A program made the position numbers. From NCBI RefSeq assembly GCF_013167455.1, contig NZ_CP038328.1: 64,000 nt of DNA; one strand, 5' to 3'. This stretch comes from Escherichia coli O157:H7 (GTDB lineage Bacteria > Pseudomonadota > Gammaproteobacteria > Enterobacterales > Enterobacteriaceae). Shown here in pieces: positions 40,201 to 43,200 of this stretch (position 1 is its first letter; every line of letters starts with the position of its first letter).

Positions 40201-43200
40201 CATGTCTCGCCAGCGCGTCGGCCTGCTTACCAAATGCCAGGACTGATAGCCATAACGTCGCCTGTCCGTCCTGTGCCTGACTGCATGGCAAAGATACCGC
40301 CATACGCGCCAGCGTCATCGGTGTGCCCTTGCTGGTCTGTTTTACCTGCGGGTCGTCCACCAGCCGTCCGTAAGCTGCAATCTGTGCTGTCATGGTCTGC
40401 GCTCCTTGTTCCGGTACTCTTGGATAATACCCATTGTCATATCGAATAAATCACATGCCGCTTTTTCTGCATCTTCCGCTTTCAGGTCATACAGCGTCAT
40501 GAAATGGTAAGTGATCGCCCGTGCTGCTCTTTTGCTGTTTGCTGCATATTTCTCATAGATTTTTCCTGCCCGCTCTTCAATATCCCGTCGGAACTCTTCA
40601 CGTTCAAACAGGTCACGGTGTATCAACATCAGCGAATCATTCAGCCATGTCACATCGGCGTATACCGTTCGCTTCCAGACAATCAGGATCGGAAGTTTAT
40701 GTTTGTCGCAGTGATGCAGATGTTCGTCAGGTATATAAAGCGTGGCTCTGCCTCGTACCGATACGAACCTCACAACAGATTCCGGTTCGGTTAAATCGAT
40801 AGCGTGTGAATGTGATTTTTTGGCGTGTTTCTCTGTCATAAAATTTTTCTCAAAGGAATAAATAAAAATTTATGCCCAAAAGGTGTTCAACTGTTCACCT
40901 TTTGCTATTTCGCCTTTAGATTCATGAAGTTAAGGGGTGAACGCTTTTTGTAAAGGTGTTCACCAACTGTTCACCCTGCTCACCCGCGACTGTTCAAAAA
41001 TCATACAAAAAGGTGAACAGGTGAATACTTTGGTGAATAGTTTTACAAAAAGTGTTCACCCATTAACATATTGATACTAAATACATTTATTGCAGGGTGA
41101 ACAGTGGTGAACAGTTTTTCTATAACTTAATTTTTATCACCCTCATTTTTCACTGGTGCACATGACGGCAGCCAGTCCTCAGACTCATCCGTCAGTATCA
41201 CGTTTGATCGCACACCTTCTTTAGTTCTCTTTTTCATATACTCCCTGCCATATTCCGCCATTGCGCCTGGCATATCTGCACCGAAGCGCGTCAGTGTTAC
41301 GGGCTTACTGAAACCGTGCGCCCTCATATACGAGAGATAGGCGTGATAAAGATAACGGCGTGGACTGAAAGGAATAATCTCAGCATTACCGACTAACAGG
41401 CCGTCACACATTACCGACGACATGAGATAGCCGCAGAAGTCCACCAGCGAATCCCCCTCACGCTTTATCGCCAGTGCTTCTTCTGATTTCTGCTGCTCAT
41501 ATAAAAGGCGTCTGGCTTCGTCCTGATCAGCAAACCGTGTAAGCAGATGACGAATCACTACAGCAAGCTCACCTTCTATTTTTTCCGGCAGCATCGGATC
41601 GCGTTCGTTTTCCGGTACAACCTCCGAAAAATTGAATATCACACGACGACGTGAGATCCCCCCGCTGCGGTCACTGAATGACATGGCGCTGTTGTTAACC
41701 GCCAGCACAACCGCCGGAATACGCGTTGAGTATGGCGCTTTGTGTTTCGGGTCAATTGCCACCTTGTCACCGCCCGTAATGGCCTTTATCCCTGCACCAT
41801 CACCCGCGTAGCGGGTCATATCCGGCAGAATAATCAGTGAAAAGCCAACCACTAATGCGCGTTCCCTTGCATCCTCCAGTGCCTTCATGCTTGCCGATAC
41901 CGTGTTGGCCTTACCTGCCAGCATGGTACAAATCTCCGCCATAACACTTTTACCGCTTCCACCAGGACCTGTTACCTCAATGAATAACTGCCAGTCGTAC
42001 CGGTTCGCCAGCACCATAAATAACGCTGCCAGAACGCGATCTGCCTTGCGGTCATTCTCAGCCACCGAACGGCGCAACCATTTCCAGAAATTCGGCGCAT
42101 GTGTTGCCAGCGTTTCCCCCTCTGCTGGTGGGCTGAAAGGTAATTCACTGGCAATTAACAACCAGTCGTTTTTGTTATGCTCCCGAAAATTACCTGTTCT
42201 GGTATCAAATACCCCGTTACTGAATCCAATCAGGTTACGGGCTGTATTCCCCATTACAGGCAAACTTAACTTCATGGTATCGACCGCCGATTTAATGGCG
42301 TTCTGCGAATAGCTGATCTCCGCATCAATGAAAATCTGTGCCATAGCTCGCTGTAATTCTTTATCCTGTACTGGCTCCCATACAACGCCGTTGTAATGGT
42401 GAACAGTGTCAGAGTCAGCATGAATCGCCAGTTCACCGCCATAATGTGCCAGGAGAACTTCGCCGCGTTGACTTGCTCCCATCTGGTTAAGCGCTAGTGA
42501 TGAAGCGTTATCGTCTTTTACCCGCTCTTTTTTCTTTACAGGCAGTTCAACTACCTTTTTCTTTTCCGCCTGCTCTGCCCGTTCACGTTCCAGATATTCG
42601 CGCCAGTTCTCCCGTTTCTGGCTGTGCATTCCTTCAGGGTAATAATCAGCATCCCTGACACCTGCCACTGCCAGTTTCTGCCCGATGGTATTAACAAGCC
42701 CCGGACGCAATAACCCCGCCTGATAGAGACGCACGCGATAGCGTCCGTCCGGTACGATTTGCAGGTTGTCCAGTTCGGCAAGTTGTTGCTCTCCAAGCCA
42801 GACAGGTGGCACGTTATCGCCAGCCAGTCGCCCGTCCTGTTCCTGCCACTGCTTCGCATGTGCCCACGCATCACTGCCAGCGAAAATAATCACTTCCGTA
42901 TCGGCGTGTTTTTTCCCTCGAGGCTGTTTTTTTAAGTTCGGTGCGCTTTTCATTTCTTACCTCTGCTGATCATCGTCATGTGGCTACCGTATTCATTGCG
43001 GTAAATATCCCCGCACATAAATTCGGGGTGAGTTTTGCTACTGGCAGTTAAGCCAGTATTTTTTGATGCCATTGAATTAATCTCCTGAAGGAGTCGTCTT
43101 AATCCTTATTTCCCGTTTATTTTTAGCCGTTATTGTTCGCCGCGTTTTTCTTCCTCCGTCATTAACCACACCGCCACATTGCTGGAAAGTTGTTTGATAA

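Follow-up and report, generated by a model that had tools for sequence, protein, structure and literature searches.

An iteron cluster resembling phage P4 ori1 and crr as the probable replication origin of a phage-inducible chromosomal island in Escherichia coli O157:H7

The 64,000-nt stretch of Escherichia coli O157:H7 DNA analysed here (contig NZ_CP038328.1 of assembly GCF_013167455.1; hereafter the window) carries an 18.3-kb island, 30208-48534, inserted between yicC and dinD and with all of its genes on the minus strand. The island is a phage-inducible chromosomal island (PICI) of the EcCIRM13514 type, and one of its genes, pri-rep, encodes a 608-residue initiator resembling the alpha protein of satellite phage P4. 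In the gap directly 3′ of pri-rep lies a dense cluster of the octamer TGTTCACC, on either strand. This cluster is very probably the replication origin of the PICI, with the 12 to 13 TGTTCACC-type repeats (iterons) as the sites that the C-terminal winged-helix domain of Pri-Rep is predicted to bind. The features on which this reading rests are as follows:

40840-41126, no strand: the whole origin region, a 287-bp gap from pri-rep to the next gene; 65% A+T (window: 50%)
41012-41113, minus strand: gene-proximal unit, P4 ori1-like, with iterons at 41106(-), 41096(-), 41053(+), 41032(-, one mismatch), 41020(-, one mismatch) and 41012(-)
40884-40984, plus strand: gene-distal unit, P4 crr-like, with iterons at 40884(+, one mismatch), 40892(+), 40936(-, one mismatch), 40957(+), 40968(+) and 40977(+, one mismatch)
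41061-41095, no strand: spacer of the proximal unit and presumed melting site, 35 bp, 77% A+T
40985-41011, no strand: centre between the two units, 27 bp, 67% A+T, with a degenerate, two-mismatch iteron TGTTCAAA at 40991
41127-42953, minus strand: pri-rep, the alpha-like initiator gene (608 aa)
41175-41207, minus strand: codons for KKRTKEGVRSN (~aa 574-584), the segment that co-varies with the iteron

The window was searched for the octamer on both strands, exactly and then with one mismatch allowed. The cluster proved to hold seven perfect copies (the seven unmarked positions in the two units above) and five copies with one mismatch, namely TGTTCAAC at 40884, CGTTCACC at 40936, TGCTCACC at 40977 and TATTCACC at both 41020 and 41032. 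An earlier, sequence-only reading of this DNA had reported at least seven perfect and further degenerate copies within 40883-41114, directly downstream of an alpha-like gene, and the count, the coordinates and the stated position were all accurate; the first iteron lies 13 bp past the pri-rep stop codon. That reading had also raised the possibility that the octamer is ordinary genomic background. In fact, the window holds 10 exact sites against 1.99 +/- 1.40 in shuffled sequences (maximum 6), and the shuffle rate predicts only ~0.007 perfect copies per 230 bp, so that seven within the cluster exclude chance. The three remaining perfect sites, at 26150, 29083 and 42398, are isolated, and neither the island nor the rest of the window contains a second iteron cluster by the exact and one-mismatch searches. 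The last of these sites falls within the pri-rep coding sequence (42398-42405), where it is accompanied by a one-mismatch iteron at 42430-42437, 32 bp away. A second P4 origin is said to lie inside the alpha gene.

The arrangement of the iterons is highly ordered. Counted from the pri-rep stop codon in the direction of the gene, they start at 14+, 24+, 67-, 88+, 100+ and 108+ in the first half (88 and 100 with one mismatch) and at 143-, 152-, 163-, 184+, 228- and 236- in the second (143, 184 and 236 with one mismatch). These positions describe two inverted units of ~100 bp, each made up of two iterons 10 bp apart, a spacer of ~35 bp with a motif resembling the site of integration host factor (IHF), one inverted iteron and then three more iterons. 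The inverted repeats I1 and I2 match this two-unit inversion, and when the distal unit is compared with the reverse complement of the proximal one, 69 of 105 positions are identical, non-iteron bases included. The distal spacer is 67% A+T. Within the proximal spacer there is a perfect IHF core consensus, TATCAATATGTTA, at 41064-41076 on the minus strand; the core pattern has four matches in the 64 kb, both strands counted. Moreover, the motif A.CA.....TTA recurs at the same place in the spacers of P4 ori1, of the PICI EcCICFT073 and of most other aligned origins, whatever their iteron. Involvement of IHF at the origin is offered here as a lead only.

The alpha protein of P4 binds type I iterons. 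That the octamer is the type I repeat of P4 ori and crr, as the sequence-only reading had stated, is borne out by the P4 GenBank record, where TGTTCACC bears the label "ori type 1 repeat" both within ori (9310-9413) and within crr (4291-4590). The likeness to P4 goes well beyond the octamer. The proximal unit aligns with P4 9293-9430, with six iterons in each and matching strands, intervals between iteron starts of 8/12/21/43/10 (10/11/22/43/10 in P4 ori1), the 35-bp AT-rich spacer at the same place, and the stretch TGTTCACCC.TTAAC.TA.TG in common. The distal unit in turn aligns with each of the 120-bp repeats of P4 crr across two iterons, a T-rich spacer and the first inverted iteron. When only the spacers are compared, the distal one is 68-69% identical to the P4 crr spacers and 47% to that of ori1, while for the proximal one the identity is 61% with the ori1 spacer and 44-56% with those of crr. 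These spacers are short and the comparison is therefore only suggestive, but it points to a crr-like distal unit and an ori1-like proximal one.

Evidence of a second kind comes from PICIs themselves. According to the account of Gram-negative PICIs by Fillol-Salom et al. (2018, ISME J; PMC6092414), a PICI origin lies immediately 3′ of the initiator-helicase gene and consists of two sets of iterons around an AT-rich stretch. The present cluster has just this position and just this form, with its two inverted six-iteron units, spacers of 77% and 67% A+T and a centre of 67% A+T. In the experiment of Fig. 2b of that paper, EcCICFT073's pri-rep-ori segment kept a temperature-sensitive plasmid in its host upon induction of rep, and deletion of either rep or ori impaired plasmid maintenance. 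The architecture shared with EcCICFT073 suggests that replication at the O157:H7 origin would likewise depend on the initiator.

By position, of course, the cluster corresponds to P4 crr rather than to P4 ori, for crr is the element that lies directly downstream of alpha. It might then be argued that the cluster is a crr-like enhancer in cis, or a handcuffing site that titrates or pairs initiator molecules, with initiation taking place elsewhere as it does in P4; the resemblance of the distal unit to the crr repeat and the iterons inside the gene at 42398 and 42430 would be in keeping with such a role. This is nonetheless very improbable. The island and the window offer no second iteron cluster at which initiation could occur, the proximal unit reproduces P4 ori1 down to its AT-rich spacer, and in EcCICFT073 the rep gene and the corresponding region were enough for replication, as reported in PMC6092414.

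The protein that would act at these sites can be divided into a Toprim-like domain that lacks the catalytic motifs (aa 1-135), a D5_N domain (165-294), a superfamily 3 (SF3) helicase P-loop domain (328-436) and a winged-helix origin-binding domain (500-596); its Pfam matches are D5_N, DUF5906 (the SF3 P-loop domain) and Pox_D5. Over 452 residues, the part of the protein that holds the helicase and the origin-binding domain (148-598) shows 50% identity to P4 alpha 320-771, and residues 500-596 match the solved origin-binding domain of P4 alpha (PDB 1KA8) with E = 1e-23. The first ~147 residues, on the other hand, do not match the primase region of P4 and contain no cysteine, no EGY and no conserved DxD, where P4 alpha has zinc-ribbon cysteines 35, 38, 57 and 60 and the Toprim motifs EGY214 and DRD260. 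Descent of this N-terminal domain from the P4 primase domain is not established, as a profile comparison between it and the primase region of P4 gave no significant match. Thus, where the sequence-only reading spoke of a primase/helicase, the helicase half is well founded; the primase half lacks the zinc-ribbon cysteines, EGY and DRD, and primase activity of what appears to be a Toprim-like domain without its catalytic acidic residues is doubtful. EcCICFT073 Pri-Rep has this N-terminal domain in highly conserved form, and elsewhere the domain is fused to RepA/AAA_25-type helicases; a homologue search with it returned mostly fragments. Some E. coli database proteins (P0002, P0004 and P0093) fuse this domain directly to a single-stranded-DNA-binding protein (SSB) domain, which would fit deletion of the helicase, binding domain and origin in some islands.

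Among relatives, protein and repeat change together. One genome per species was scanned, yielding 80 loci from 282 relatives, and 85 loci were examined once reference loci were included. In 74 of the 85, the 300 bp on the 3′ side of the gene contain their commonest 8-mer at least three times. The two-unit layout recurs in hand-registered maps of ~25 loci that use nine different iteron sequences: TGTTCACC, TCTCCACC, TGTCTACC, TGTCCGC, TGTCCAC, TATCTACC, TATACAC, TGTATACC and GTGTTCAT. A strict automatic test for the proximal unit was passed by 32 of the 85 loci and by none of 85 control stretches taken from inside the gene. The pass rate is modest because many iterons are degenerate and the register of the top 8-mer varies, and the hand-registered maps are the better evidence for the layout.

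Across these 85 loci, changes in the iteron go along with changes in a short stretch near the C-terminus of the origin-binding domain. Segments of the form K[KR]x[ST]KxG[IVL][RQ][ST]N pair with TGTTCACC in the window, in P4, in a Klebsiella element, in Raoultella and Pectobacterium, and in ~45 loci of Xenorhabdus and Photorhabdus, and they do so in proteins with three different N-terminal architectures. RKKSTKGNMRSN pairs with TCTCCACC in proteins that are otherwise ~80% identical in the binding domain, and every further iteron pairs with a segment variant of its own. In the Klebsiella element, deposited as phage vB_KppS-Ant, the iteron map is the same and the initiator is 73% identical; capsid, portal and terminase genes are present, and the element came out of a phage preparation, having been induced. 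A Lelliottia locus (L083) and one from Escherichia sp. ESNIH1 (L084) encode initiators whose C-terminal domains are nearly the same, with segments KERRARGMVTN and KERKTRGVVTN and iterons TGTATACC and GTGTTCAT, respectively, and so make up a natural minimal pair for recognition studies. In Xenorhabdus and Photorhabdus, several species of which carry at least three copies, long P4-type alpha genes (~800-840 aa) have a TGTTCACC/TATTCACC-type cluster directly 3′ (L028, L029 and L036 as well as the ~45 loci). The three numbered loci, mapped by hand, show an ori1-like proximal unit and a weaker distal one. The contiguous arrangement is thus not confined to short, PICI-type proteins.

Another means by which the iterons could act is on transcription. 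A consensus-based scan of the gap found no terminator-like and no convincing promoter-like site above background; the P4 record, for comparison, marks a terminator between the alpha gene and crr. With no terminator after pri-rep and no good promoter for the genes that follow, transcription probably crosses the iterons into ssb and the genes beyond, and it is conceivable that Pri-Rep uses the iterons mainly as an operator or roadblock to control read-through into the 149-aa gene, ssb, the proQ-like gene and perC. As the principal function of the cluster this is hardly credible: a roadblock would be a role added to that of an origin and would not replace it, it has no need of a conserved AT-rich spacer or of ori1-like geometry, and the promoter and terminator scan that speaks for it was only consensus-based. 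As a secondary idea, binding of Pri-Rep at the origin might also modulate the downstream genes.

P4 alpha and the tested EcCICFT073 replicon, as homologues, suggest how the origin would fire. A helper phage would induce the island by way of the AlpA-type activator, leading to production of Pri-Rep, which would load onto the iterons, assemble as an SF3 hexameric helicase and open the 77% A+T spacer at 41061-41095. The SSB encoded by the island would then cover the single strands while host polymerase copies the excised circle. Priming would probably come from the host, because the N-terminal domain of Pri-Rep lacks primase catalytic motifs.

The wider anatomy of the island supports its identity and bears on its state of preservation. 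Its remaining features are these:

30208-30219 and 48523-48534: direct repeats of the 12-mer attachment (att) core GAGCAGATTCAA, the right copy at the yicC 3′ end and the left just beyond dinD
47059-48321, minus strand: integrase
45810-46025, minus strand: AlpA/HTH_17 regulator (Phage_AlpA/HTH_17)
40390-40839, minus strand: 149-aa open reading frame (ORF) adjoining the origin
39944-40393, minus strand: island-encoded SSB
31475-32703 and 34931-37164: insertions of IS2 and of an IS66-family element, at the cargo end

The gene order, as annotated in two matching genomes, starts with the integrase, a 216-aa protein, AlpA/HTH_17, an AntA/B-type protein, an Icd-like protein and several small ORFs. 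It continues with the 608-aa "DNA primase family protein", the repeat-bearing gap, the 149-aa ORF (to which Pfam, NCBIfam and PHROGs assign no function), SSB and a ProQ/FinO-like protein, and ends with the cargo, which comprises three PerC-family genes, the IS66-family element, YeeE/YedE, a Q antiterminator and IS2. According to PMC6092414, Gram-negative PICIs have int and alpA co-directional with the remaining genes, a PICI-specific attC and a length of ~10-15 kb, and Table S1 of that paper lists EcCIRM13514 with the att core GAGCAGATTCAA at the yicC-dinD site. The island has this organization: all genes are on the minus strand, integrase and AlpA are present, the att core and site are those of EcCIRM13514, and the length falls to ~14.7 kb once the annotated IS2 and IS66-family transposase genes (~3.6 kb) are subtracted. 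Identity as a P4-like prophage was considered and rejected. In a tblastn search of the window with all P4 proteins, only int and alpha found matches (none for sid, psu, delta, cnr or epsilon), and with the att site and gene order of EcCIRM13514 this identifies the element as a PICI rather than a P4-type satellite. The part of the sequence-only claim that stands in the phrase "P4-type origin" is therefore homology to ori1 and crr; the arrangement differs, and the host element is a PICI.

At the left of the window (1-10828) there is a second, unrelated island at the selC tRNA-Sec gene (10734-10828). Its integrase (9250-10434) is 43% identical to P4 Int, and its cargo includes a TPR protein, a frameshifted phosphoethanolamine transferase, an outer-membrane protein, the type I restriction-modification proteins HsdM and HsdS, and an AAA ATPase.

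Several points weigh against a working origin at this locus. P4 ori1 is insufficient by itself and needs crr in cis. Likewise, P4 replication requires the primase of alpha itself and is independent of the host primase, whereas the N-terminal domain of Pri-Rep has neither a zinc ribbon nor EGY nor a conserved DxD. In addition, the island has suffered two insertions, IS2 and the IS66-family element, and contains none of the capsid, decoration and small-terminase (terS) genes of EcCICFT073 and of the PICI at clpS-cspD (L087), so that it may no longer be mobilisable even with an intact replicon. The same insertions and missing genes suggest a more sweeping alternative, namely that this is origin-derived DNA in a decayed island that no longer excises, replicates or transfers, its sites being a relic. 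Such wholesale decay is unlikely, considering that pri-rep has its full length (608 aa, with 607 in EcCIRM13514), that the integrase and AlpA-type genes, SSB and the two att repeats remain intact, and that seven of the iterons have no mismatch. Across many genomes of Shiga toxin-producing E. coli the 2.7-kb replicon segment is 100% identical; this identity fits recent spread and constraint alike, and hence does not decide the matter of decay. An intact origin used by Pri-Rep is still much the better account of the locus. The suggestion that the element could replicate as a plasmid after excision is another matter: PICIs have no plasmid state according to PMC6092414, and plasmid-like replication here would be an analogy only, replication being expected after induction by a helper phage.

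Origin-like sequence of this kind occurs in 684 of 5,426 complete E. coli genomes, with at most six matching places per genome, and the region is unannotated in all 30 genome records sampled among these 684 carriers. The region can be labelled as the rep_origin of a PICI, and the "DNA primase family protein" would be better named a replication initiator-helicase. PerC-family regulators of the kind carried here are reported to switch on the LEE (locus of enterocyte effacement) virulence island, and an intact replicon therefore bears on amplification and movement of the island that carries them. The nine iteron variants also provide natural initiator-iteron pairs for the study of how a winged-helix domain reads DNA.

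A broader and more tentative idea is that the compact PICI origin and the split P4 origin are one system, P4 ori1 and crr being a dispersed version of a two-unit origin. This is conceivable rather than likely, but it would have several consequences. The contiguous form would be that of PICIs and, in Xenorhabdus and Photorhabdus, of the long alpha genes of P4 type. As the exact iteron and the specificity segment are shared, P4 alpha would fire or block the origin of this island, and Pri-Rep that of P4, and co-resident satellites of different families would cross-activate or compete at replication in genomes with up to six origin-like matches. The KKRTKEGVRSN segment, for its part, would be a swappable specificity code for the iteron. 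Such a unified system would run against the published view, which describes PICI origins as like "no other known bacterial replicon" and has P4 and PICIs evolving independently.

Among known replicons, the origin is readily set apart from the DnaA-dependent iteron origins of plasmids of the pSC101, R6K and F type. Region 40840-41126 contains no GATC and no DnaA box at up to one mismatch, and in place of a winged-helix initiator of the Rep_3 type there is an SF3 helicase fusion. With P4 the island shares the identical 8-bp iteron, the ori1 geometry and a homologous helicase with its winged-helix origin-binding domain. In P4, however, ori1 and crr are 4.5 kb apart and crr consists of two 120-bp direct repeats, whereas here a single ori1-like and a single crr-like unit are adjacent and inverted. 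Also unlike P4, the island has no zinc-ribbon or Toprim catalytic motifs in its initiator and none of sid, psu, delta, cnr and epsilon, and no type-2 repeats were found in the window.

The closest relative is EcCIRM13514 of E. coli O145:H28 RM13514 (L006), with which the island shares the att core, insertion site, gene order and accession of the AlpA-type protein. Pri-Rep is 91% identical to its counterpart there and wholly identical from about residue 300, and the origins differ by a few substitutions and one 1-bp indel; the iteron at 40977, degenerate here (TGCTCACC), is perfect in RM13514. EcCIRM13514 is shorter (11.9 kb against 18.3 kb), the additional DNA here including IS2, the IS66-family element, YeeE/YedE, the Q antiterminator and more copies of PerC. 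EcCICFT073 (L004) is more distant, with 49% overall identity between the Pri-Rep proteins, yet it has the same order of origin immediately 3′ of pri-rep, small ORF and ssb, and the same two-unit layout. Its iterons start at 15+, 24+, 72-, 92+, 103+, 112+ ... 224-, 233- past the stop codon, as compared with 14+, 24+, 67-, 88+, 100+, 108+ ... 228-, 236- here. Its binding domain is divergent, its iteron is TGTCTACC/TATCTACC in place of TGTTCACC, and its C-terminal segment is TRKVKGVTQTN in place of KKRTKEGVRSN.

With PICI origins of this plan already published and the near-identical EcCIRM13514 catalogued, the origin described here is essentially known. The text and supplements of PMC6092414, as available, give no iteron sequences, and the cf-PICI preprint does not discuss origins. 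In the literature searched, the octamer was found only in unrelated primer sequences, and there was no statement that a PICI origin uses the P4 type I iteron or reproduces ori1 and crr. The homology of a PICI origin to P4 ori1 plus crr is accordingly a modest addition, and its wider point is equally modest: PICI origins and the classical P4 ori1 and crr can be related to each other module for module.

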